Shown here piece by piece: positions 16,901 to 39,380 of a stretch of 64,000 bases of DNA. The translations under genes were made by a program, and so were the position numbers. Source of the DNA: Pristiophorus japonicus. Its lineage: Eukaryota. Within the stretch, counting starts at the first letter, position 1, and every line of letters begins with the position of its first letter. Under the pieces are notes generated by a model. It ran no database searches. It had not been told where the DNA came from and saw only the letters and a program-made list of their open reading frames with translations. The stretch is from contig NC_091987.1 of assembly GCF_044704955.1 (NCBI RefSeq), forward strand, positions 26,412,001-26,476,000, in the 5' to 3' direction.

Positions 16901-18655
16901 ACATAGAAACATAGAAACATAGAAGATAGTTGCAGGAGTAGGCCATTCGGCCCTTTGAGCCTGCACCACCATTCAATATGATCATGGCTGATCATTCACC
17001 TCAGTACCCCTTTCCCGCTTTCTCTCAATACCCTTTGATCCCTTTAGCCATAAGGACCACATCTAACTCCCTCGTGAATATATCCAATGAGATGGCATCA
17101 ACGACTCTCTGCGGCAGGGAACTCCACAGGTTAACAACTCTCTGAGTGAAGAAGTTTCTCCTCATCTCAGTCCTAAATAGCCTACCCCTTATCCTAAGAC
17201 TGTGTCCCCTGGTTCTGGACTTCCCCAACATCGGGAACATTCTTCCCGCATCTAACCTGTCCCATCCCGTCAGAATCTTATACGTTTCTATGAGATCCCC
17301 TCTCATCCTTCTAAACCCCAGTGTATAAAGACCCAGTTGATCCAGTCTCTCCTCATATGTCAGTCCAGCCATCCCTGGAATCACTCTGGTGAACCTTTGC
17401 TGCACTCCCTCAATAGCAAGAACGTCCTTCATCAGATTAGGAGACCAAAACTGAACACAATATTCGAGGTGAGGCCTCACCAAGGCCCTGTACAACTGCA
17501 GTAAGACCTCCCTGCTCCCACACTCAAATCCCCTAGCTATGAAGGTCAACAGGCCATTTGCCTTCTTCACCGCCTGCTGCACCTGCATGACAACTTTCAA
17601 TGACTGATGAACCATGACACCTAGGCCTCGTTGCACCTCCCCTTTTCCTAATCTGCCGCCATTCAGATAATATTCTGCCTTCGTGTTTTTAACACCAAAG
17701 TGGATAACCTCACATTTATCCACATTATATTGCATCTGCTATGCATTTTCCCACTCTCCTAACCTGTCCAAATCACCCTGCAGCCTCTTAGCATCCTCCT
17801 CACCGCTCATACCGCCACCCAGTTTAGTGTCATCTGCAAACTTGGAGATGTTACCCTCAATTCCTTCATCCAAATCATTAATGTATATTGTAAAGAGCTG
17901 GGCTCCCAGCACTGAGCCCTGCAGCACTCCACTAGTTACTGCCTCCCATTCCGAAAAGGACCCGTTTATCCCGACTCTCTGCTTCCTGCCTGCCAACCAA
18001 TTCTCTATCCACGCCAGTACATTACCCCCAATACCATGTGCCTTGATCTTGTACACCAATCTCTTATGTGGTACCCTGTCAAAGGCCTTTTGAAAGTCCA
18101 AATACACCACATCCACTGGTTCTCCCTTGTCCACTCTACTAGTTACATCCTCAAAAAATTCCAAAAGATTTGTCAAGCATGATTTCCCTTTCATAAATCC
18201 ATGCTGACTTGGTCTGATCCTGTCACCTTTTCCAAATGCGCTGCTATTTCATCCTTATTAATAGATACCAACATTTTCCCCACTACTGATGTCAGGCTAA
18301 CCGGTCTATAATTACCCGTTTTCTCTCTCCCTCCTTTTTTAAAAAGTGGTGTTACATTAGCTACCCTCCAGTCCATAGGAACTGATCCAGAGTCGATTGA
18401 CTGTTGGAAAATGATTACCAATGCATCCACTATTTCTAGGGCCACCTCCTTAATACTCTGGGATGCAGACAATCAGGCCCTGGGGATTTATCGGCCTTCA
18501 ATACCATCAATTTCCCCAACACAATGTCCTGCCTAATAAGGATATCCTTCAGTTCCTCCTTCTCACCAGACCCTCGGTCCCCTAGTACATCTGGAAGGTA
18601 ATTTCTGTCTTCCTTCATGAAGACAGAACCAAAGTATTTGTGCAGTTGGTCTGCC
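16901..18655 (-). mobile_element. 5'-truncated CR1 LINE (RT region and tail)
   Basis: RT ORF fragments 17025-18472; (CATAGAAA)n tail at 16901; absent from the paralogous unit at about 3200. Confidence 0.9.
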
Positions 18656-22841: not shown

Positions 22842-24000
22842 CATAAGAAATTGTCTATTTCTGTCTTAAATTTATTCAATGCCCCAGCTTCCACAGCTCT
22901 CTGATGCAGTGAATTCCACAGATTTACAAGCCTCTGAGAGAAGAAATTTCTCCTCATCTCAGTTTTAAATGGGCGGCACCTTATTCTAAGATCATGTCCT
23001 CTAGTTCTCGTCTCCCCCATCAGTGGAAACATCCTCTCTGCATCCACCTTGCCAAGCCCCCTCATAATCTTATACGTTTCGATAAGATCACCTCTCAATC
23101 TTTTGATGTCCATTGAGTATAGGCCCAACCTACTCAACCTTTCCTCATAAGTCAACCCCCTCATCTCTGGAATCAACCTAGTGAACCTTCTCTGAACTGC
23201 CTCCAAAGCAAATATATCCTTTCGTAAACATGGAAACCAAAACCGGACGCAGTATTCCAGGTGTGGCCTCACCAATACCCTGTATAACAAGAATTCCCTG
23301 CTTTTATACTCCATCCCCTTTGCAATAAAGGCCAAGATTTCATTGGCCTTCCTGATCACTTGCTGTACCTGCATCCTAACCTTTTGTGTTTCATGCACAA
23401 GTACCCCCAGGTCCCGCTGTACTGCGGCACTTTGCAATCTTTCTCTATTTAAATAATAACTTCCTCTTTGGTTTTTTTCTGCCAATGTGCATGACTTCAT
23501 ACTTTCCAACATTATATCCATCTGCCAATTTTTTGCAGATTCACTGAGCCTGCCTATTTCCTTTTGCAGATTTCTGTGTCCTCCTCATACATTGCGTTCC
23601 CTCCCATCTTTGTATCTTCAGCAAACTTGGCTACGTTACACTCAGACCCTTCTTCCTAATCGTTAGTATAGATTGTAAATAGTCGGAGTCCCAGCATTGA
23701 TCCCTGCGACACCCCACTAGTTATTGATTGCAAAGCCAAGAGTGAACCATTTATCCCGACTCTCTGTTTTTTGTTAGTTAGCCAATACTCTATCCATGCT
23801 AATGTATTACTCCCCACCCTATGAACGTTTATCTTGTGCAGTAACCTTTTACCTGGCATCTTGTCAAATGCCTTCTGGAACTCCGAATACATCACATCCA
23901 CTGATTTCCCTTTATCCACTCTGTTCGTTACATCCTCAAAGAATTACAGCAAATTTGTCAAACATGACTTCCCCTTCATAAATCCATGCTGAATCTGCCT
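22842..24000 (-). mobile_element. CR1 LINE fragment (RT)
   Basis: ORFs 22628-23521 and 23656-23919 carry CR1 RT/C-terminal motifs. Confidence 0.85.
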
Positions 24001-25419: not shown

Positions 25420-26615
25420 CATAAGAACATAAGAATTAGGAACTGGAGTAGGCCACCAACCCCATCGAGCCTGCTCCGCCACTCAACAAGATCATGGCTG
25501 ATCTGGCCGTGGACTCAGCTCCACTTACCCGGCCACTCCCCATAACCCTTAATTCCCTTATTGGTTAAAAATCTATCTATCTGTGATTTGAATACATTCA
25601 ATGAGCTAGCCTCAACTGCTTCCCTGAGCAGAGAATTCCACAGATTCACAACCCTCTGGGAGAAGAAATTCCTTCTCAACTCGGTTTTAAATTGGCTCCC
25701 CCGTATTTTGAGGCTGTGCCCCCTAGTTCTAGTCTCCCCAACCAGTGGAAACAACCTCTCTGCCTCTATTTTGTCTATCCCTTTCATTAAATGTTTCTAT
25801 AAGATCACCCCTCATCCTTCTGAACTCCAACGAATAAAGACCCAGTCTACTCAATCTATCATCATAAGATAACCCCCTCATCTCCTAGTGAATCTGCCTA
25901 GTGAATCGTCTCTAAACCCCTCCAAAGCTAGTATATCCTTGCTTAAGTAAGGTGACAAAAACTGCACGCAGTACTCCAGGTGCAGCCTCACCAATACCCT
26001 GTGCAGTTGCAGCAGGACCTCCCTGCTTTTGTACTCCATCCCTCTCGCAATGAAGGCCAACATTCCATTCGCCTTCCTGATTACCTGCTGCACCTGCAAA
26101 CTAACTTTTTGGGATTCATGCACAAGGATCCCCCAGATCGGGGGGCACGGTTTAATGTTTTTCTGTTAACTCCTAAAAGAGTTTCATGCACAAGGATCCT
26201 AAAAGAGTTTCATGCACAAGGACTCCCAGGTCCCTCTGCACTGCAGCATGTTGTAATTTCTCCCCATTCAAATAATATTCCCTTTTACTGTTTGTTTTTC
26301 CAAGGTGGATGACATCACATTTTCCGACATTTTCCGACATTGTAGTCCATCTGCCAAACCTTAGCCCATTCGCTTAACCTATCTAAATCTCTTTGCAGCC
26401 TCTCTGTGTCCTCTACACAACCCGCTTTCCCACTAATCTTTGTGCCATCTGCAAATTTTGTTACACTACACTCTGTCCGCTCTTCCAGGTCATCTATGTA
26501 TATTGTAAACAGTTGTAGTCCCAGCACCAATCCCTGTGGCACACCACTAACCACCGATTTCCAACCCGAAAAGGACCCATTTATCCCGACTCTCTGCTTA
26601 CTGTTAGCCAGCCTA
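25420..26615 (-). mobile_element. CR1 LINE 3' portion ((ATAAGAAC)n-tail subfamily) with an internal insertion at 26129-26208
   Basis: RT motifs in ORFs 25515-26755; tail at 25420. Confidence 0.85.
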
Positions 26616-27094
26616 TGTGGCCTCATGTGGTTTATATCCTCAGGGATCACATACAATAACATTGAGAGGGAGAGTGAGAAAATTGGATGTCCTGACTTGG
26701 TTCCCACCTCGTAATGAGTAGGCCACGAAGGGGATTTATTGTAGTCCAAACGCATCTCCAGCGGAGACTCTCACCTTCCCATATGTTCAATGCACCGTCA
26801 CTCATGAAAGTATATTGATGATTGATGATGCTCGTGAGTCATGCTGCAGCTCCCACTTCTCCATCNNNNNNNNNNNNNNNNNNNNNNNNNNNNNNNNNNN
26901 NNNNNNNNNNNNNNNNNNNNNNNNNNNNNNNNNNNNNNNNNNNNNNNNNNNNNNNNNNNNNNNNNNNNNNNNNNNNNNNNNNNNNNNNNNNNNNNNNNNN
27001 NNNNNNNNNNNNNNNNNNNNNNNNNNNNNNNNNNNNNNNNNNNNNNNNNNNNNNNNNNNNNNNNNNNNNNNNNNNNATTCTGAAAAATCACTTA

Positions 27095-27130
27095 ACATGA
27101 AACAACATCATCAGACATAGTAACAGATAG
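27095..27130 (-). pseudogene. Orphan V leader remnant (paralog of 8525-8560)
   Basis: Homologous to 8505-8560; its upstream flank resumes at about 31148, after the CR1. Confidence 0.6.
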
Positions 27131-27132
27131 TT

Positions 27133-30100
27133 AGAAACGTAGAAAGTAGGGCAGGAGTAGGCCATTCGGCCCTTTGAACATGCACCACCATTCAATAAGA
27201 TTATGGCTGATCATTCACCTCAGTATCCCTTTCCTGCTTTCTCTCCATACCCCTTGATCCCTTTAGCCGTAAGGGTCATATCTAACTCCCTCTTGAATAT
27301 ATCCAATGAACTGGCATCAACAACTCTCTGCGGCAGGGAATTCCACAGGTTAACAACTTTCTGAGTGAAAAGGTTTCTCCTCATCTCAGCCCTCATCTAA
27401 ATGGTCTACCCCTTATCCTAAAACTGTGTTCCCTGGTTCTGGACTTTCCCAAGATCGGGAACATTCTTCACGCATCTAACCTGTCAAGTCTTGTCAGAAT
27501 CTTATATGTTTCTATGAGATCCCCTCTCATCTTTCTAAACTCCAGTGTATAAAGGCACAGTTGATCCAGTCTCTCCTCATATGTCAGTCCTGTCATCCTG
27601 AGAATCAGTCTGGTGAACCTTCGCTTCACTCCCTCAACAGCAACAACGTCCTTCCTCAGATTAGGAGACCAAAGCTGAACACAATATTCTAGGTGAGGTC
27701 TCACCAAGGCCATGTACAACTGCAGTAAGACCTGCCTGGTCCTATACTCAAATCCCCTAGCAATGAATGCCAACATACCATTTGCCTCTTCACCGCCTGC
27801 TGTTCCTGCATGCCAACTTTCAATGACTGATGAACCATAACACCCAGGCCTCGTTGCACATCCCCTTTTCGTAATCTGCTGCCATTCAGATAATATTCTG
27901 CCTTCATGTTTTTGCCCCAAAAGTGGTAACCTCACATTTATCCACATTATACTGCATCTGCCATGCATTTGCTCACTCACCTAACCTGTCCAAGTCAACC
28001 TGCAGCCTCTTAGCGTCCTCGTCACGGCTCACACTGCCACACAGTTAAGTGTCATCTGCAAACTTGGAGATATTACACTCAGTTCCTTCATCTAAATCAT
28101 TAATGTATATTACAAAGAGCTGGGATACCAGCACTGAGCCCTGCGGCACCCCACTAGTCACTGCCTGCCCTTCTGAAAAGGACCCATTTATCCCGACTCT
28201 CTGCTTTCTGTCTGTCAACCAGTTCTCTATCCATGTCAGTACATTACCCCCAATACCATGTGCTTTGATTTTGCACACCAATCTCTTGTGTGGGACCTTG
28301 TCAAAAGCCTTTTGAAAGTCCAAATACACCACATCCCTTGTTCACTCTGCTAGTTACATCCTCAGAAAATTCCAGAAGATTCATCAAGCATAATTTCCCT
28401 TTCATAAATCCATGCTGACTTGGTCCGATTCTTTCACTGCTTTCCAAATGCGCTGCTATTTCATCCTTAATGATTGATTCCAACATTTTCCCCCCTACTG
28501 TTGTCAGGTTAACTGGTGTATAATTGCATGTTTTCTCTCCCCCTCCTTTTCTAAAAAGTGGCGGTACATTAGCTACGCTCCAGTCCATGGGAACAGATCC
28601 AGAGTCGAGAGACTGTTGGAAAATGATCACCAATGCATCCACTATTTCGAGGGTCACTTCGTTAAATACTCTGGGATGCAGTCGATCAAGCCCCGGGGAT
28701 TTATCAGCCTTCAATCCCATCAATATTCCGAACACAATTTCCTGTATAATAAGGATATCCTTCAATTCCTCCTTCTGACCAGAACCTCGGTCCCCTAGTA
28801 CATCTGGGAGTTTATTTGTGTCTTCCTTCGTGAAGACAGAACGAAATAATTTGTTCAACTGTTCTGCCATTTCTTTGTTCCCCATTATAACTTAACCTGT
28901 ATCCGACTGCAAGGGACCCACGTTTGTCTTCCCTAATCTTTTTCTCTTCACATATCTATAGAAGATTTTGCAGTCAATTTTCATGTTCCCAGCAAGCTTC
29001 CTCTTTTACTCTTTTTTCCCCCTCTTAATTAAACCCTTCGTCCTCCTCTGCTGAATTCTAAATTTCTCCCAGTCTTCAAGTTTGCTGATTTTTCTGGCCA
29101 ATTTATATGCCTCTTCCTTGGATTTAACACGATCCTTAAGTTCCCTTGTTAGCCATGGTTGAGCCACCTTTCCCGTTTTATTTTTACTCCAGACAGGGAT
29201 GTACAATTGTTGAAGTTCAGCCATGTGATCTTTAAATGTTTGCCATTGCCTATCCACCGTCAACCCTTTAAGTATCATTTGCCAGTCTATTCTAGCCAAT
29301 TCACGCCTCATACCATCGAAGTTACCTTTCCTTAAGTTCAGGACCCTACTTTCTGAATTAACTGTGTCACTCTCCATCTTAATAAAGAATTCTACCATAT
29401 TATGGTCACTCTTCCTCAAGGGGCCTCGCACAACAAGATTGCCAATTAGTCCCTTCTCATTACACATCACCCAGTCTAGGATGGCCAGCTCTCTAGTTGG
29501 TTCTTCGATATATTAGTCTAGAAAACCATCTCTAATACACGCCAGGAAATCCTCCTCCACCGCATTGCTACCAGTTTGGTTAGCCCAATCAATATGTGGA
29601 TTAAAGTCGCCCATGATAACTGCTGTACCTTTATTGCACACATCCCTTATTTCTTGTTTGATGCTATCCCAAACCTCACTACTACTGTTTGTTGGACCGT
29701 ACACAACTCCCACGTGCGTTTTCTGCCCTTTGGTATTCCGCAGCTCCACCCATACCGATTCCATCCAAGCTAATGTCCCTCCTTACTATTGCATTAATAT
29801 ACTCTTTAACTCGCAACGCCACCCTGCCTGCTTTCCTTTCTGTCTATCCTTCCTAAATGTTGAATACCCCTGCATGTTAAGTCCCCAGCCTTGGTCACCC
29901 TGGAGCCATGTCTCCGTGATGCCAATTACAACATATCCGTTAACTGCTATCTGTGCAGTTAATTCATCCACCTTATTCTGAATTCTCCTCGCATTGAGGC
30001 ACAGAGCTTTTAGGCTTGCCTTTTTAACACACTTTTCCCCTGTTGAATTTTGCTGTAATGTGGCCATTTTTGTTTTTTGCCTTGGATTTCTCTGCCCTCC

Positions 30101-31140
30101 ACTTTTACTATTCCCCTTTCTATCTTTTGCTTCTGCCTCCATTTTATTTCCCTCTGTCTCCCTGCATAGGTTACCATTCCTCTGCCATATTAGTTTAACT
30201 CCTCCCCAACAGCACTAGCAAACTCTCTCCCTAGGACATTGGTTCCGGTCCTGCCCAGGTGCAGACCGTCCGGTTTGTACTGGTCCCACCTCCCCCAGAA
30301 TTGGTTCCAATATCCCAGGAATTTGAATCCTTCTCTTCTGCAGCACTCCTCAAGCCACGTATTCATCTGAGCTATCCTGCCATTCCTACTCTGACTAGCA
30401 CGTGGCACTGGTAGCAATCATGAGATTACTACTTTTGTGGTCCTACTTTTTAATTTAGCTCCTAGCTCCCTAAATTCATCTCGTAGGACCTCATCCCGTT
30501 TTTTAGCTATATCGTTGGTACCTATATGCACCACGACAGCTGGCTGTTCACCCTCCCTTCTCAGAATGTCCTGCACCCGCTCTGAGACATTCTTGACCCA
30601 TGCACCAGGGAGGCAATATACCATCCTGGAGTCGCGGTTGCGGCAGCAGAAACGCCTATCTATTCCCCTTACAATCGAATCCCCTATCACTATCGCTCAC
30701 CCACTCTTTTTCCTGCCCTCCTGTGCAGCAGAGCCACCCATGGGCTGCCGCTGCTCTCCCCTGATGAGTCATCCCCCTAAACAGTACCCAATGCGTTGTA
30801 TCTGTTTTGCAGGGCTTGACCGCAGGGGACCCCTGCACTATCTTCCTTGCACTGCTCTTCCTGTTGGTCACCCATTCCCTGACTGGCTGTGTACCCTTTA
30901 CCTGCGGTAAAACCAACTCACTAAACGTGCTATTCACGTCATTCTCAGCATTGTGAATGCTCTAGTGTGAATCCACCCGCAGCTCCAGTGCCGCAATGAA
31001 GTCCGTCAGAAGCTGCAGGTGGATGCACTTCTCTCATATATAGTCATCAGTGACACTGGAAGCGTCCCTGACTTCCCACATAGTACAGGAGGAGCATAAC
31101 ACGTGTCCGAGCTCTTTTGCCATGACTTTACCCCTAGGTT
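27133..31140 (-). mobile_element. Near full-length degenerate CR1 LINE (ORF1 zinc-finger/SGNH esterase; ORF2 APE and RT)
   Basis: ORF1 starts MAKELGHVLCSSC near 31123; IGDSIVR, HIGTND and DGLH esterase motifs; ETWL and GDFN APE motifs; RT motifs; tail at 27133. Confidence 0.9.
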
Positions 31141-32189
31141 AAATTGGTTCAAGTTGTCCCCTTAATAATTAAAGAACCGAAAAGGTGAGCATCCGGTCTG
31201 TGAGGAAATTATGAAGAACATTATGAGGTTTCACAGATTTGAAAGCCCAGCCCTTCTCTAATTGACCACTCCTCCCTTCTCTGATTCACAGCCCTGTCTC
31301 TCTGCCTTTCCCTGGCTGATACCCCCACTCGTCCCTCTCTGATTGGCGGTGAGTGGAGTAGATGGGAACAGGAATTTGCACTGGGGACATAGAGAGATTA
31401 AATGAGTGAGCAAAACAGTCACAGATGTAGGTCATTGTTGGAAAGTGTGACTTGATCTACTTTGGACCGACGAAAGACATATCAGAGTACTTGCTATATC
31501 TAGAAACTGTGGAGGAGTAATGGGATTTACATGTCCAGGTAAACAACTCACTACGAGCCAGTATGAAAGGATTAAAAAGAAACAGAGAGCCGGGATAGGG
31601 CTGGAATATAAAGCTCCAGAAATTATTCTGCAGTTGTGTACAGCTCTGGTCACGCTCCCTCTGGAGTAACTGCATTCAGGCCTGGGCACCGCACCTCAGG
31701 AAGGATATATTGGCCTTGGAGAGGGAGTGGCACAGAATCACTAGAATGGTCTGGGGCTAAAAGGGTTAAATTGGGATGACAGATTGTACAGACGTGTATT
31801 CCACTGAATGTAGCAGATTAAGGTATGATCTAATTGAAGTTTTGAAATGTTAAAAGCAGTTGATAAGGCAGAGAAACTATTTCCTCTGGTGGGGGAGTCC
31901 ATTACATAGGGTGCATTACCTTAAATCTGGACCCAGACCGTTCAGGCATGGTCAGGAAGCACTACTTCACACAAAGTATTAAATTAATCTGGAACTCTCT
32001 TCCTCAATTAGCTGCGGATGATGGGAGAAAATTGGAGCTCGTCAGGCTCAGTTTCATAGATTTATGCCGGGTTAGGTTATTATGGGATATGCAGCAAAGG
32101 CGGCTAAATGAAGGTGGTGTACAGATCAGCCATGATCTGATTAAATCCCAAAGTAGGAGCAAGTACACGATTGTTTCCCTCGCCTTCCA

Positions 32190-32485
32190 GAGTAACAGGC
32201 TTGAGGGGGCTAAATGGCCTCCTCCTGTTCCTGTGCAACAGGCTCGAGGGGCTGAATGGGCCTCCTGTTCCTGTTTTACATGCTTGAGGGACTGCATAGC
32301 CTCCTCCTGTTCCTGTGTAACAGGCTCAAGGGGCTGAATTGGCCTCCTGTTCCTGTGTAGCAGGCTCGAGGGTCTGAATGGGGCTCCTCCTGTTCCTATG
32401 TACAGGCTCGAAGGGCTGAATGGATCTCCTCTTGTTCCCGTGTAACAGGCTCGAGGGGCTGAATGGGCCTCCTCCTGTTGCTGTG
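32190..32485 (+). repeat. ~41-bp LINE-tail minisatellite
   Basis: About 7 copies. Confidence 0.85.
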
Positions 32486-33120
32486 TTCATCTTGAACCAT
32501 GTTCCGGGCACTGTTGTGTTTCTTGCTTAGAGCGCCCTCTACTGTACCTTTTGGACAATGTCAGTATTTGTAAAAAGTATTTTACTTGGATACCTTCTTG
32601 ATATATTTCGATCTATTTTTTCACTAGCATTCAGCCTTCCAATCTTTCAATCTTTTCTTTACCTTCCCTTCATTGTCGTTTGTTTCCTCTTTGCATTCTT
32701 TCTTTCATTTTTTCGTTATGTCTTTATTTCCTTTTTGATTAATTTATTTCCCTCTTTATTCCTTTCTATCTTTTATTCTTCCTATCTTCCTTCCTTTCTA
32801 TCGATTCTCTACACACTGTAATATAAAACACGTTGTTAATCTTTAGCGGCCTCTGTCTCATCACCCCTTAGCCATCTCTTTTTTTAGACAAATCGGCCCG
32901 GTTTGCTCAGGATTTCCTGTTCGTTTGAACCTCTCAATTCTGGTGTCATGCTTGTTAATCTTTATTTGCACCTTCTCCAGTGACTCCACATCTAATCTCT
33001 CACTTTTATTCTAAACCCTCTATAGTGCTTGTCAAAACCATGTGAGCTCAGTAAAATAAACCCAATATAACTCGGCACCATGCTGCTTCACCATCCCCAG
33101 GTGTTTCCTGCCGCCTTTGG

Positions 33121-35056
33121 GGTTTATGTCGGGCCCCTCCATCTCCCTGAGTCACTGCGCAAACTCCAGCCGCAGTAATACACGGCCGACTGATCCGCCC
33201 GCAGGCGGGAGGACTTCAGGTTCAACTCGTTGCTATTCGGTCGTTCGGCGGTAAAAACTGTCCACCGTCCCTTCTGCAGTTACGCTTTTTGCAACTAGGG
33301 ACATAAACATCAAATGCGGCTCCTTCCCCGGGTCCTGCCTGCACCAGTACATTTGAGGGCTACTGGTGCCCTTCACGTCACAATAGATTTGCACTCCGTG
33401 TCTGGGCAATCTGGACACAGCCCCGGGAATCTGGCTGATGGTCTCTGAGTTAACGTCTGGGAAAGAGACGGGGAGAGGAGGAGGTCAGTAAACAGGGACA
33501 ATCGGGAAATGCACCGGGATAGAATCGAAGTATGGAAAGACAGAAAGACAGAAAGATAGAAAGAAAGGAAGGAAAGAAAGAAAGTGTGATAAAGGTTAGT
33601 GACAAGAATTAATCTTTGAAAAACTCCCTTACATAAGAACATAAGAATTAGGAACAGGAGTAGGCCATCTAGCCCTGGAGCCTGCTCCGCCACTCAACAA
33701 GATCATGGCTGATCTGGCCACTTACCCGCCCGCTCCCCATAACCCTTAATTCCCTTATTGGTTAAAAATCTATCTATCTGTGATTTGAATACATTCAATG
33801 AGCTAGCCTCAACTGCTTCCTTGGGCAGAGAATTCCACAGATTCACAACCCTCTAGGAGAAGAAATTCCTTCTCAACTCGGTTTTAAATTGGCTCCCCCG
33901 TACTTTGAGGCTGTGCTCCCTAGTTCTAGTCTCCCGACCAGTGGAAACAGCCTCTCTGCCTCTATCTTGTCTATCCCTTCCATTATTTTAAATGCTTCTA
34001 TGAGATCACCCCTCATCCTTCTGAACTCCAACGAGAAAAGACCCAGACTACTCAATCTATCATCATAAGTTAACCCCCTCATCTCCGGAATCAGCCTAGT
34101 GAATCGTTCTGTACCACTCCAAAGCTAGTATATCCTTCCTTAAGTAAGGTGACAAAAACTGCATGCAGTACTCCAGGTGCGGCCTCACCAATACCCTGTA
34201 CAGTTGCAGCAGGACCGCCCTGCTTTTGTACTCCATCCCTCTCACAATGAAGGCCAACATTCCATTCGCCTTCCTGATTATCTGCTGCATCTGCAAACTA
34301 ACTTTTTGGGATTCATGCACAAGGACCCCCAGGTCCCTCTGCACCGCAGCATGTTGTAATTTCTCCCCATTGAAATAATATTCCCTTTTACTGTTTTTTT
34401 TCCAAGGTGGATGACCTCACATTTTCTGACATTGTATTCCATCTGCCAAACCTTAGCCCATTCGCTTAACCTATTTAATCTCTTTGCAGCTTCTCTGTGT
34501 CCTCTACACAACCCGCTTTCCCACTAATCTTTGTGTCATCTGCAAATTTTGTTACACTACACTCTGTCCCCTCTTCCAGGTCATCTATGTATTCTGTAAA
34601 CAGTTGTGGTCCCAGCACCAATCCCTGTGGCACACCACTAACCACCGATTTCTAACCTAAAAAGGACCCATTTATCCCGACTCTCTGCTTTATGTTAGTT
34701 AGCCAATTTTCTATCCCTGCTAATACATTACCTCTGACTCCGCGTACCTTTATCTTCTGCGGTAACCTTTTGTGTGGCACCTTATTGAATGCCTTTTGGA
34801 AATCCAAATACACAACATCCATTGGTACACCTCTATCCACCATGCTCGTTATATCCTCAAAGAATTCCAGTAAATTAGTTAAACGTGATTTCCCCTTCAT
34901 GATTCCATGTTGCGTCTGCTTCCTGTCTCGATGTCCCGCTATTTCTTCCTTAAAGATAACTTCAAGCATTTTCCCCACTACAGATGTTAAACTAACCGGC
35001 CTATAGTTACCTTCCTTACATTGAAACATGATCAACAGACCCAGTAACTGCTGCAT
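33121..35056 (-). pseudogene. TRBV: TCR V pseudogene V7 (paralog of V8): RSS 33121-33159, V exon 33160-33456, leader 35020-35056
   Basis: 1-nt insertion frameshift near 33255; WY changed to WC; heptamer CGCAGTG; leader MQQLLGLLIMFQ displaced by a 1.4-kb CR1. Confidence 0.85.
33632..35013 (-). mobile_element. CR1 LINE inserted at the V7 leader splice donor
   Basis: RT ORFs; CCTTACAT at both 33627-33634 and 35014-35021. Confidence 0.85.
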
Positions 35057-35369
35057 CTTTTACTTGATGGTGTCCTCTTGATGAAAGGAGTGATTACAGG
35101 AGCGTGGAGTCTGTTAGGAGCCAGACCGGTTATTTATTAAACACTGAGGAGAATATGAAGAGCCTGAGAAAGTGAGGCAGCGTCCCTTCCCCCGATCGAA
35201 CCAGTCACATTCAATGACGTTTCTAATAAAGAATCGCTGGCTAGATCTGATACCGTTTACTCTCCCAACACCAGTCTTTGTGGCTGATTTTTTATTCGCT
35301 GAGCAGAAATGAGATTTTCCAAATCTGAATTTCCCACTAGAAACAGCTGCATTCTCATTGGTATCTGTC

Positions 35370-37050
35370 CGTCAATGTGGAAAACTGCCCGGCTATGTCC
35401 TGTCCACAAAAGGCAGGACAAATCCAATCCGGCCAATGACCACCCCATCAGTCTACTCTCAATCATCAGCAAAGTGATGGAAGGTGTCGTCGACAGTGCT
35501 ATCAAGTGGCTCTTACTTAGTAATAAGCCACTCGCCGAGGCTCGGTTTGGGTTCTGCCAGGATCACTTGGCCCAAGACCTCATTACAGCTTGGTCCAAAA
35601 TGGACAAAAGAGCTGAATTCCAGAGGTGAGGTTAGAGTGACTGCCCTCGACATCAAGGCAGCATCTGACCGAGTGTGGCACCAAGGAGCCCCAGTAAAAC
35701 TGAAGTAAGTGGGAATCGGGGGGTGGAGGATCTTCATTGGCTGGAATCATACCCAGCACAAAGGAAGATGGTTGTGGTGGTTTCAGGTGAATCATCCATG
35801 CCCCAGGACATAACTGCAGGACTTCCCCAGGGCAGTGTCCTTGGCTCAACCGTCTTCAATTGCTTCATCAGCACTCTTCCTTCCATCATAAGATCAGAAG
35901 TGGGGATGTTCGCTGATTACTTCATAGTCAGAGAGTTTGCAACCTGTAGAATTCTCTACCGCAGAAAGTTGTTGATGCCAGTTCATTGGATATATTCAAG
36001 AGGGAGTTAGATATGGCCCTTACGGCTAAAGGGATCAAGGGGTATGGAGATAAAGCAGGGAAAGGGGTACTGAGGTGAATGATCAGCCATGATCTTATTG
36101 AATAGCGGTGCAGACTTGAAGGGCTGGATCGCCTACTCCTGCACCTATTTTCTATGTTTTTATGTTTCTATGTTTCCTCAGTGTCATTCACAACTCCTCA
36201 GATAATGAAGCAGTCCACGCCTGCATGCAACAAGACCTGGATAACATTCAGTCTTGGGCTGATAAGTGGAAAGTAACATTCGTGCCACACAAGTACCAGG
36301 CAATAACTATCTCCAACAAGCGAGAGTCTAACCACTGCCCCTTGACATTCAACGGCATTACCATCGCCGAATTCTCCACCATCAACATCCTGGGGGCCAC
36401 CATTGACCAAAAACTTAACTGGACCAGCCGCTTAAATACTGTGGCAACAAGAGCAGGTCAGAGGCTGGGTATTCTGCGGCGAGTGTCTCACCTCCTGACT
36501 CCCCAAAGCCTTTCCACCATCTACAAAGCACAAGCCAAGAGTGTGATGGAATACTCTCCACTTGCCGGGATGAGTGCACTCCAACAACACGAAAGAAGCT
36601 TGACACCATCCCGGACAAAGCAGCCCACTTGATCGGCTCCACATCCATCACCTTAATCATTCACTCACTCCACCACCAGCGCACCATGGCTGCAGTGTGT
36701 ACCATCTACAAGATGAACTGCAGCAACTCGCCAAGGCTTCTTCGGCAGCACCACCCAAACCCGCGACCTCTACCATAGAAGGACAAGGGCAGCAGGTTCA
36801 TGGGAACACCACCACCTCCAAGTTCCCCTCCGAGTCACACACCATCCTGACTTGGAAATATATCGGCCGTTCCTTCATCGTCGCTGGGTCACAATCCTGG
36901 AACTCACTCCTTAACAGCACTATGGGAGCACCTTCACCACACGGACTGCAGCGGTTCAAGAAGGCAGCTCACCACCACCTTCTCAAGGGGCAATTAGGGA
37001 TGGGCAATAAATGGCGGCCTTGTTAGCACTGCCCACATCCCATTAACGAA
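35370..37050 (+). mobile_element. Second non-LTR retrotransposon family (CR1/L2-like RT), interrupted by a CR1 3' end at about 35918-36172
   Basis: WKTA..PVHK..DKSNPAN..PISLLS and PQGSVLG RT motifs. Confidence 0.8.
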
Positions 37051-37549
37051 TTTTTTAAAAATTACCCACCCGTTGTTCCCCAATTAGACAGATGCAGCGG
37101 CCCAATTATCCACAATCACATTCGCAAAATAGCCACAAGTGGCTCGTGGCTCACACACACACAGACAACACTGGTGTAAACAAACGTTTTCTGATAGAGC
37201 GAGACAGATGATGCCACAATATCCGGGTCACAAGGCCTTCCCCTCTGTCTTACCGCATGGTTGGGCTCAGGGTTGGGCCAGTGACAACCAGGAGGACTCA
37301 AAATGTCGCCTTTGACTGGGGAACCTGCAAAATGTCCAGCTGTATTCAGACTGCAGTGAACCCGTTCCACATCAGTGATAGCACAGGTTGAGCTGGGACA
37401 TGAATGGCTGCCCAATAAGAGAGCTAAATGGAAGAGGCAATAATTTCCTGGATGTCCTCATCGACACTCATTGCTCCAAGTAATGCCCTACTGTTGAGGA
37501 AATTATATACTTCATAGTTCTATTCCATTTTACGACATTCCCGATGGGC

Positions 37550-37838
37550 TGTAAGAGGCTCGAGGGGCTGAATGGGCCTGCTCCTGTTCGTGTGTAACAG
37601 GCTCCAGGGGCTGAATAGCCTCCTGTTCCTGTGCAACATGCTTCAGGGGCAGAATGGGCCTCCTCCTGTTCCAGTGTAACAGGCTCGAGGGACTGAATCG
37701 GCCTCCTGTTTCGGTGTAACAGGCTCGAGGGGCTGAATGGGCCTCCTGTTCCTATGTAGCAAGCTCGAGGGGCTGAATGGCCTTCTCCTGTTCCTGTGTA
37801 ACAAGCTCGAGGGGCTGAATGGCCTCCTATTCCTGTGT
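37550..37838 (+). repeat. ~41-bp LINE-tail minisatellite
   Basis: About 7 copies. Confidence 0.85.
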
Positions 37839-38337
37839 TCATCTTGAACCATGTTCCGGGCACTGTTGTGTTACTTTGTCCTAGAGCGTCCTCTACTGTA
37901 CCTTTGGACAATGTCAGTGTTTGAAAAAAGTATTTTACTTGGATACCTTCTTTATATATTTCGTTCTTTTTTTCACTAGCATTCAGCCGTTCTATCTTTC
38001 AATCTTTTCTCTACCTTTCCTTCATTCTCTTTTGTTTCCTGTTTGCATTCTTTCTTTCATTTTTTCGTTGTCTTTATTTCGCTTTTGATTCATTTATTTC
38101 CCTCTTTATTCCTTTCTATCTTTTATTCTTCCTATCTTCCTTCCTTTCTATCGATTCTCTACACACTGTAATATAAAACACGTTGTTAATCTTTAGCGGC
38201 CTCTGTCTCATCACCCCTTAGCCTTCTCTTTTTTAGACAAATCAGCCCGGCCTGCTCAGGATTTCCTGTTCGTTTGAACCTCTCAATTCTGGTGTCATGC
38301 TTGGTAATCTTTATTTGCACCTTCTCCAGTGACTCTA

Positions 38338-39380
38338 CATAAGAACATAAGAATTAGGAACTGGAGTAGGCCATCTAGCCCCTCGAGCCTGCTCAGCCAT
38401 TCAAGAAGATCATGGCTGAAATGGCCATGGACTCAGCTCCTCTTGCCCGCCCGCTCCCCATAACCCTTTATTCCCTTACTGGATAAAAATCTATCTATCT
38501 GTGATTTGAATACATTCAATGAGCTAGCCTCAACTGCTTCCTTGGGCAGAGAATTCCACAGATTCACAACCCTCTGGGAGAAGAAATTCCATCTCAACTC
38601 GGTTTTAAATTGGCTCCCCCGTATTTTGAGGCTGTGCCCCCTAGTTCTAGTCTCCCCGACCAGTGGAAACCACCTCTCTGCCTCTATCTTGTCTATTCCT
38701 TTCATTATTTTACTTGTTTCTATAAGATCACCCCTCATCCTTCTGAACTCCAACGAGTAAAGACCCAGTCTACTCAATCTATCACCATAAGGTAACCCCC
38801 CATCTCCGGAATCAGCCTAGTGAATCGTTCTGTACCCACTCCAAAGCTAGTATATCCTTCCTTAAGTAAGGTGATCAAAACTGCACGCAGTACTCCAGGT
38901 GCTGCCTCACCAATACCCTATACAGTTGCAGAAGGACCTCCCTGCTTTTGTACGCCATCCCTCTCGCAATGAAGGCCAACATTCGATTTGCCTTCCTAAT
39001 TACCTGCTGCACCTGCAAACTAACTGTTTGGATTCATTGGCTCGTTGCTCTAGGAGTATGATTGTTGCTTTGGGATTGTTACTTGAAATTTGCGTAAGGT
39101 CCAGGGTTCAAATCCTGCACGAGCCCTTAATTTGCAGCGAATTTTGAATTTGCGTCGAACTTTTCTCTAAAAGAGTTTCATGCACAAGGACCCCCAGGTC
39201 CCTCTGCACCGCAGCATGTTGTAATTTCTCCCCATTTAAATAATATTCCCTTTTACTGTTTTTTTTCCCAAGGTGGATGACCTCACATTTTCCAACATTA
39301 TATTCCATCTGCCAAACCTTCGCTCATTCGGTTAACCTATCTAAATCTCATTGCAGCCTCTCTGTGTCCTCTACACAACA
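38338..39380 (-). mobile_element. CR1 LINE 3' portion carrying a tRNA-containing insertion
   Basis: (ATAAGAAC) tail at 38338; ORF2 C-terminal motifs; absent from the paralogous unit at about 32990. Confidence 0.85.
39039..39126 (+). tRNA. tRNA-Pro(TGG) pseudogene with a 16-nt intron (39075-39090)
   Basis: GGCTCGTTGcTCTAGGaGTATGATT...CTT-TGG-G[intron]TGCG..AGGTCCaGGGTTCAAATCCtGcACGAGCCC closely matches the eukaryotic tRNA-Pro sequence; several stem mismatches. Confidence 0.8.

Follow-up and report, generated by a model that had tools for sequence, protein, structure and literature searches.

A Tx1-clade retrotransposon at a single base of CR1 in Pristiophorus japonicus, its 11-12 nucleotide tails and its captured RNA polymerase III transcripts

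The stretch of Pristiophorus japonicus contig NC_091987.1 analyzed here (64,000 nucleotides (nt), positions 26,412,001 to 26,476,000; hereafter the window) carries three related copies of CR1, a long interspersed nuclear element (LINE). Two are interrupted at the same base of open reading frame 2 (ORF2) by inserts with a common 3′ end, and the third retains the empty site. The evidence presented below points to a second LINE, of the Tx1 clade, as the source of these inserts; in the genome at large, its insertions often consist of only the last 11-12 nt of the element or join that short end to transcripts of RNA polymerase III (Pol III). Coordinates are those of the window, and loci numbered L are genomic stretches fetched from outside it. 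The features of the window loci are the following.

25489..26616, minus strand: host CR1 copy 1 (3′ part of ORF2), interrupted by two inserts; identity to the empty copy 91-92% on either side of the insertion point
26115..26128, plus strand: target duplication, 5′ copy, 14 base pairs (bp), identical to the next copy over 17 nt, to 26131; by sequence match
26129..26182, plus strand: 5′-truncated Tx1, final 54 nt, from the stem-loop of the 3′ untranslated region (UTR) onward; 91% over 33 nt to the element at L037, near-identical to the Tx1 end at L180
26183..26196, plus strand: target duplication, middle copy; by sequence match
26197..26208, plus strand: Tx1 insert of 12 nt consisting of the tail alone; 78 of the first 100 short inserts listed fall in this class
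26209..26222, plus strand: target, 3′ copy, after which CR1 resumes; by sequence match and CR1 alignment
33700..34960, minus strand: CR1 copy 2 of the host type, site empty; insertion point between 34311 and 34312
38439..39379, minus strand: host CR1 copy 3, interrupted by the tRNA insert; 93-94% identical to the empty copy
39033..39037, plus strand: 5-nt duplication TTCAT; by sequence match
39039..39126, plus strand: decayed copy of tRNA-Pro(TGG) with its 16-nt intron retained (39075-39090); best 39 of 1,054 candidate matches, 85-91%
39127..39164, plus strand: 3′ trailer of the tRNA gene, up to its second T4 run; similarity to the source genes ends at query base 127, where the sources continue GCAAAG
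39165..39176, plus strand: Tx1 tail, 12 nt; longest suffix match to real Tx1 ends, 12 nt

The inserts of 54 nt (26129-26182), 12 nt (26197-26208) and 139 nt (39038-39176, with a 5-nt duplication) are all present in the sequence as the original prediction had placed them. All three end, as it had said, in CTAAAAGAGT directly before TTCAT (exact at 26173, 26199 and 39167), although this 10-mer is just one among several tail variants, and the empty site is intact at 34308-34325. The 14-mer target TTCATGCACAAGGA occurs at 26115, 26183, 26209, 34312 and 39177, and at up to two mismatches there are seven matches in the window against 0.97 expected. Each of the two tandem inserts is indeed followed by a duplicated target, but the first duplication spans 17 nt rather than 14 because TCC begins both inserts. 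The insertion point lies in CR1 ORF2 codons that read DLGVLVHES on the minus strand. Because the three host copies differ from one another at 33-39 of about 581 bases (∼6%), they represent separate hosts. The exact site is absent from seven more distant CR1 copies in the window, which have no insert at that place. Separately, an older CR1 copy (75% identical to a young one) carries an empty variant of the site with other upstream bases at 23390-23403.

In the 5.9-Gb genome, a 19-nt sequence that runs from the tail into the target has 4,266 occurrences, against none for its reversed control, so the junction is not unique to the window loci. Upstream of the junction, most of the first 30 loci share the same sequence. 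Among 18 stretches of 10 kb, one (L037) holds an entire element of ∼7.17 kb between two CR1 halves, which is the autonomous donor that had been predicted. Its ORF1 encodes 699 amino acids with a C-X2-C-X4-H-X4-C motif that was seen by reading the sequence and has no Pfam match. The 1299 amino acids of ORF2 comprise an N-terminal apurinic/apyrimidinic-type (APE) endonuclease (Exo_endo_phos, PF03372, residues 6-227), a reverse transcriptase (RVT_1, PF00078, 512-760) and a C-terminal zinc motif (zf-RVT, PF13966, 1132-1180). The best family-named match of ORF2 is Xenopus Tx1 ORF2 (49% identity over 1296 amino acids, 99% of the query), and partial matches at 67-71% come from one ray and one shark. 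Copies diverge from one another by ∼2-3.5%. The 54-nt window insert, whose origin had gone unrecognized in the original prediction, represents the 3′ end of one of the element's variants and begins at a stem-loop in which both strands of the stem change from variant to variant.

Judged by its sequence, the inserted element is a Tx1-clade retrotransposon without long terminal repeats (LTRs), having a separate ORF1, an ORF2 that joins APE endonuclease to reverse transcriptase, Tx1 as its closest named protein and a preference for a repeated target. R2 elements have a single ORF, a restriction-like endonuclease and a 28S target. The element described here has none of these, and with two ORFs, an APE domain ahead of the reverse transcriptase and a CR1 target it does not belong to the R2 family; of the two affinities first suggested, only that to Tx1 stands. 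Tx1L of Xenopus laevis (annotated as "Transposon TX1 uncharacterized 149 kDa protein") resembles it in the 49% identity of ORF2, in combining APE endonuclease with reverse transcriptase and in inserting at a set place in another transposon. The target of Tx1L is Tx1D, a non-autonomous piggyBac, according to the accessible text of PMC4494074, whereas the target here is the coding region of another LINE, entered in antisense.

The element lies antisense to CR1 ORF2 at a single base, usually with a 14-bp duplication. Among 30 Tx1 ends chosen by an internal 3′ UTR motif (1,380 genome occurrences), and thus unselected for target, 27 precede the target 14-mer at no more than one mismatch, three of these being from one array. 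When CR1 sites were scored by 22 exact downstream bases, the tail was present at 6,088 of 31,214 (19.5%), which bears out the proposal that another LINE is the target. Site-specific insertion driven by the Tx1 element is, in our assessment, almost certain.

Insertions away from the CR1 site help to define the element's end and its nick geometry. In 12 of 14 readable off-target sites, drawn from 30 loci matching a non-target pattern and two from the unselected set of ends, the duplications measure 12-15 bp and start immediately after AGAGT; therefore the element ends in AGAGT, and the ∼14-bp stagger is independent of target sequence. The base preceding the duplication differs from the element's T in several of these sites, and the commonest start is TTCA. 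A derivation of the TT after AGAGT from the RNA is rejected, as the base in second position is not constant at off-target sites and forms part of the duplicated target. Locus-private variants are present in both duplication copies at L040, L075 and L057, and duplications at 34 on-target loci contain too few variants for a test of variant sharing by position. As a separate observation, a Tx1 end at L229 lies at a TTCAA motif in a more distant CR1 subfamily (compare the copies like that at window 17075-18206), ∼8 bases away from where the homologous position would be.

A second property that the original prediction had not recognized is that tail length is fixed. A genome pattern search recovered 753 inserts of 5-35 nt with a full duplication, and the first 100 include none of 5-9 nt, one of 10, 38 of 11, 40 of 12, five of 13 and 16 of 15-33 nt; this longest group contains some doubles and a single event that was entered four times. 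The 78 inserts of 11-12 nt are spread over five tail variants with hairpins of differing size. Folding predicts an ACTC/GAGT stem, and loops of 4-8 nt occur among 92 ends, which were collected by a pattern that required the stem, so that its constancy there is by construction. Among first-100 inserts of 10-14 nt, assigned to variants by eye, the loop CAAAAA (14-nt hairpin) gives 21 tails of 12 nt and 10 of 11 (31 of 31 at 11-12, none at 13-14), and AAAA (12-nt hairpin) gives six of 12, 10 of 11 and one of 13 (16 of 17 at 11-12). Loop TAAAA gives four of 12, seven of 11 and one of 10; CAAAA gives seven of 12, five of 11 and one of 13; and CTAAAA gives three of 11 and up to three of 13. Tail length is therefore independent of the hairpin. 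In the first 100 matches of a sample anchored on the 5′ flank, tails of 11-13 nt account for 11 of the 60 sites that are filled, as judged by eye with a script check on 30.

The same short tail terminates inserts that carry other RNAs. The window tRNA insert matches a multi-copy family of tRNA-Pro(TGG) genes, retains both the 16-nt intron and a trailer of 38 nt, and departs from its source exactly at the second of two T4 runs, after which the 12-nt tail follows. ARAGORN reports tRNA-Pro(tgg) with a 16-nt intron in six of 19 fetched relatives, which are tRNA-gene-type copies with common flanks; at default thresholds neither ARAGORN nor Rfam detects the window copy, and the Gln label that ARAGORN assigns at a lowered threshold is a mislabel, the identity resting on the source genes. 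The gene family itself is represented at L110-L128, and captured copies of tRNA-Arg(TCG) likewise bear an intron.

Genome-wide, two counts of junctions at which one tail variant follows bases foreign to Tx1 gave 257 and 78, numbers that also take in bare tails and point variants of Tx1, and T4 precedes any tail in 327 raw matches, overlaps included. From 130 fetched loci (60 + 30 + 40), 54 were classed by eye as chimeras after bare tails, Tx1 variants, three fold-backs, duplicates and unclear cases had been dropped. In the window insert and in these 54 loci, a sense small RNA is joined 5′ of the LINE 3′ end within one insertion, the arrangement of known RNA/LINE chimeras, with no duplication between captured RNA and tail. 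The tail is 11-12 nt in all 54, though the search patterns permitted only ∼9-13 nt; in a control anchored on the 3′ end of 5S RNA and open to 4-34 nt, 12 of 13 tails are 11-12 nt and one is 9-10, and three are preceded by intervening extra bases. The capture of small RNAs that had been proposed is thus seen with many different RNAs behind one tail, while the template switch itself is a reading of junction anatomy.

Rfam finds a tRNA or 5S RNA in 35 of the 54 chimeras, as well as tRNA-Sec and vault RNA, but U6 in none. ARAGORN names Leu, Ser, Met, Arg, Asp, Trp and Tyr tRNAs, with introns in Arg and Tyr, and introns, leaders and trailers are retained among the captured RNAs. Some form head-to-tail chains, such as 5S-5S (L214), 5S-tRNA-Asp (L202) and three tRNAs (L074). 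Duplications of at least 12 bp accompany nine of 45 chimeras compared with 14 of 20 longer Tx1 copies (by eye; Fisher p = 0.0002), which fits the 5-nt duplication of the window insert. No captured RNA appears at 69 5′ junctions of longer Tx1 copies, examined by eye at loci not chosen for captures.

Several further observations concern the captured material. At L077, L166 and L212 an inverted copy of the neighboring target strand lies behind an 11-12 nt tail, as if by fold-back or a jump to local DNA or CR1 RNA; Rfam microRNA matches at these loci are the fold-back hairpins themselves and fall under the gathering score. The trailer of the captured RNA at L191 has the same stem-loop as the window Tx1 variant and then a different end, so that a related Tx1 family possibly resides behind tRNA genes. 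A young repeat (L101:1160-1500, L259-L288; 98-99% alike, 1,111 candidates) has U1- and U2-like parts, whose Rfam scores lie below the gathering cut-offs, and a poly(A) tail, and resembles the crocodilian SINEU. For the bulk of its copies we reject it as a partner of Tx1 among short interspersed nuclear elements (SINEs), given that 29 of its 30 best copies end in poly(A), off the CR1 site and without the tail; three loci (L089, L090 and L101) are captures.

Tx1 copies also occur in arrays, whose units often begin at the identical Tx1 base (L036, L038, L041, L043). The units differ by 33-62 substitutions per ∼1,860 bases, as much as separate loci do, and their tails differ, by which local duplication is rejected as their origin except perhaps at L036. 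Private changes increase from upstream to downstream in five of six arrays, with one tie. We infer from this fit that arrays grow by repeated insertion at the upstream site, with the resident copy guiding the 5′ joint, and the TCC common to both tandem window inserts is a small-scale version of this effect. Off-target arrays of at least six short Tx1 copies with common 5′ breakpoints and mixed tails (L234-L239, L258) were also noted; later insertions there may succeed more readily once a copy is resident. A 5′ breakpoint near element base 6240, in a part of the element similar to the last bases of the target duplication, recurs at five separate loci.

What the sequences show directly is the donor with its domains, the insertion site and how often it is filled, the duplication of 14 bp, the class of 11-12 nt inserts and what many of the captured RNAs are. 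The account that probably explains them is a Tx1 element that homes to CR1 and whose reverse transcriptase often stops after 11-12 nt, the stub then being sealed or jumping to a Pol III RNA. The APE endonuclease would make a bottom-strand nick at GGGA^TTCA and a top-strand nick ∼14 bp downstream, complementary DNA (cDNA) would begin at the RNA end ...AGAGU, and synthesis would meet a length checkpoint at 11-12 nt. The stub might then be joined to the upstream flank or might jump end-to-end onto pre-tRNA, 5S, vault or SINE RNA, sometimes several in series, the putative acceptor being a newly transcribed Pol III RNA with its U-rich 3′ terminus. Duplication would restore the site, and later copies would land upstream, often borrowing the resident copy's 5′ breakpoint by homology.

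Whether the stop is built into the initiation of target-primed reverse transcription is, to us, an evenly balanced matter. On this reading the enzyme would halt at 11-12 nt, roughly one turn of the helix, irrespective of RNA sequence, much as RNA polymerase does in abortive initiation, and jumps would start from the arrested cDNA end. The genome would then hold hundreds of frozen intermediates, together with a sample of nascent Pol III RNA from germ-line nuclei. Template switching, suggested by the anatomy of the junctions, has a counterpart in R2, for which the accessible part of PMC8857657 describes end-to-end jumps to the 3′ end of a new RNA, aided by 1-2 paired or added bases; this fits the chains and extra bases seen here.

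A number of observations weigh against this account or limit it. Specificity is not strict: three of the 30 unselected Tx1 ends are off target, 447 matches to the non-target pattern were found with two tail variants (some being array joints with short duplications), and a second target, GGCGCTA^TTCACAGCCACTTA, recurs in another repeat at L231, L246, L247 and L248 with duplications of 12-14 bp. Nor is length absolute, as indicated by the single 5S tail of 9-10 nt, a 4-nt insert at L307, 8-nt inserts without duplication at L164, L169, L170 and L184, and one long-tail chimera from a selected set, in which a SINE head precedes 504 nt of Tx1 (L057); microhomology, moreover, blurs each tail length by ∼1 nt. 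Most chimera loci came from patterns requiring a T run, which inflates the Pol III share, and the genome matches listed are from the first contigs only and include segmental duplicates (a 33-nt insert was counted four times, and L031 is L032). Units L036a and L036b are only three substitutions apart. A polymerase stop and an RNA cut 11-12 nt from the end look alike in DNA.

The main rival accordingly sets the length on the RNA. A nuclease would cut Tx1 RNA 11-12 nt from its end, and the bound fragment would serve as template by itself, be ligated to Pol III RNAs, or be copied to its end ahead of a jump. Such a cut would account for the sharp peak in bare tails and chimeras alike, and R2-type jumps start at the template 5′ end and need a 1-2 nt overhang (accessible part of PMC8857657); ligation, for its part, is one route proposed for U6/L1 chimeras in the available text of PMC13174262. 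However, the cut would have to disregard sequence and hairpin size across five tail variants, and the fold-back copies behind the same tail suggest a free cDNA end. For ligation, RtcB needs a phosphate, 3′ or cyclic, and neither pre-tRNA nor 5S RNA has such an end. The ligation branch is also at odds with the absence of U6 from the 54 chimeras, since U6 dominates L1 chimeras, and the chains, extra bases and missing U6 together favor a jump over RNA ligation. We regard RNA cleavage as unlikely, though it deserves to be taken seriously.

A stall of the reverse transcriptase at the small terminal RNA hairpin (ACTC-loop-GAGT) is very improbable. The stem is predicted by folding, with loops of 4-8 nt among the 92 stem-selected ends, but loops of 4, 5 and 6 nt all yield 11-12 nt and the 14-nt hairpin variant yields no tails of 13-14 nt among 31 (by eye), which largely refutes this explanation.

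We give still less credence to the idea that bare tails are remnants of longer insertions after deletion or recombination and that the tRNA inserts are a tRNA-headed SINE with a Tx1 tail. Some joints do show 1-3 nt of microhomology with the target, and LINE-derived tails are common in SINEs as described in the accessible text of PMC4494074, yet no constant homology accounts for one length in five variants, and the identity, leader and trailer of the captured RNA vary by locus. For the window insert at 39038-39176 the SINE interpretation is refuted, as the tail or CR1 flank is present in none of the 19 fetched relatives, taken from the best 39 of 1,054 candidates. Finally, it is scarcely credible that the motif belongs to a CR1 subfamily itself, that conversion spread it or that it arose in assembly, even though no short-read contig spans either window locus, given that the motif is the end of a separate two-ORF element, that contents, lengths and duplications vary among thousands of sites, and that bare-tail joints occur in short-read contigs, including one from a second sample of another study (joint 26114 to 26201).

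Tx1 elements that target another transposon are a known kind, within which the present element is distinguished by a LINE as target and a sharp 11-12 nt product class. Recorded Tx1 targets include piggyBac, Mariner, Harbinger and LTR elements, U2, U5, 5S, satellites and microsatellites in the accessible text of PMC4494074. The crocodilian families described there (Tx1-Mar, Tx1-8_Crp, Tx1-4_AMi, Tx1-9_AMi and SINEU) resemble the present element in preferring other transposons (Mariner, LTR elements, Harbinger), in tandem insertion, and in U1/U2 sequences at 5′ ends for which template switching was proposed. Their preference is regional and old (85-87% to consensus), whereas that of the present element is confined to a single base and young (∼2-3.5% between copies), and the same accessible text neither names CR1 or another LINE as a target nor describes a fixed-length tail, both of which are features here. 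The literature searched, by titles and the opening lines of abstracts and with Repbase and most subscription journals outside our reach, contained no Tx1 with a CR1 target or fixed-length tail class and no report of tail-only inserts or Pol III capture by Tx1L; the accessible part of PMC13343379 does not mention Tx1.

Chimeras of U6/L1 and of other RNAs with LINEs share with ours a sense small RNA 5′ of a LINE 3′ fragment within one duplication; as available, PMC4476161 and PMC13174262 propose template switching or RNA ligation, extend the class to L2 and RTE in lizard and note pre-tRNA retrocopies in human. In L1 chimeras, on the same partial sources, U6 is dominant and tRNA/L1 amounts to 21 loci, mostly antisense halves. 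The captures described here are instead whole sense precursors of many tRNAs and 5S, with U6 in none of 54 and the LINE part fixed at 11-12 nt.

This element bears on how LINEs pass from priming to processive synthesis, why they become truncated and how their 5′ ends are joined. As a young, intact and site-specific element, it has left very many natural products at one reference base, and the sharp 11-12 nt class, the 14-bp stagger that holds off target and the breakpoints inherited from neighbors all yield predictions for in vitro work. An APE element specific to a single base is also of interest for targeted gene insertion. With ∼20% of scored sites filled in the ORF2 of another LINE, the known Tx1 targets, so far DNA transposons, LTR elements, RNA genes and microsatellites, are extended, and Tx1 insertions may disable many CR1 copies. 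The captures represent the raw step by which Pol III RNAs acquire a LINE tail, a proposed route to new SINEs. If the checkpoint reading is true, this record was made by a LINE parasitizing the reverse transcriptase gene of another LINE, with every event at the same known CR1 base.

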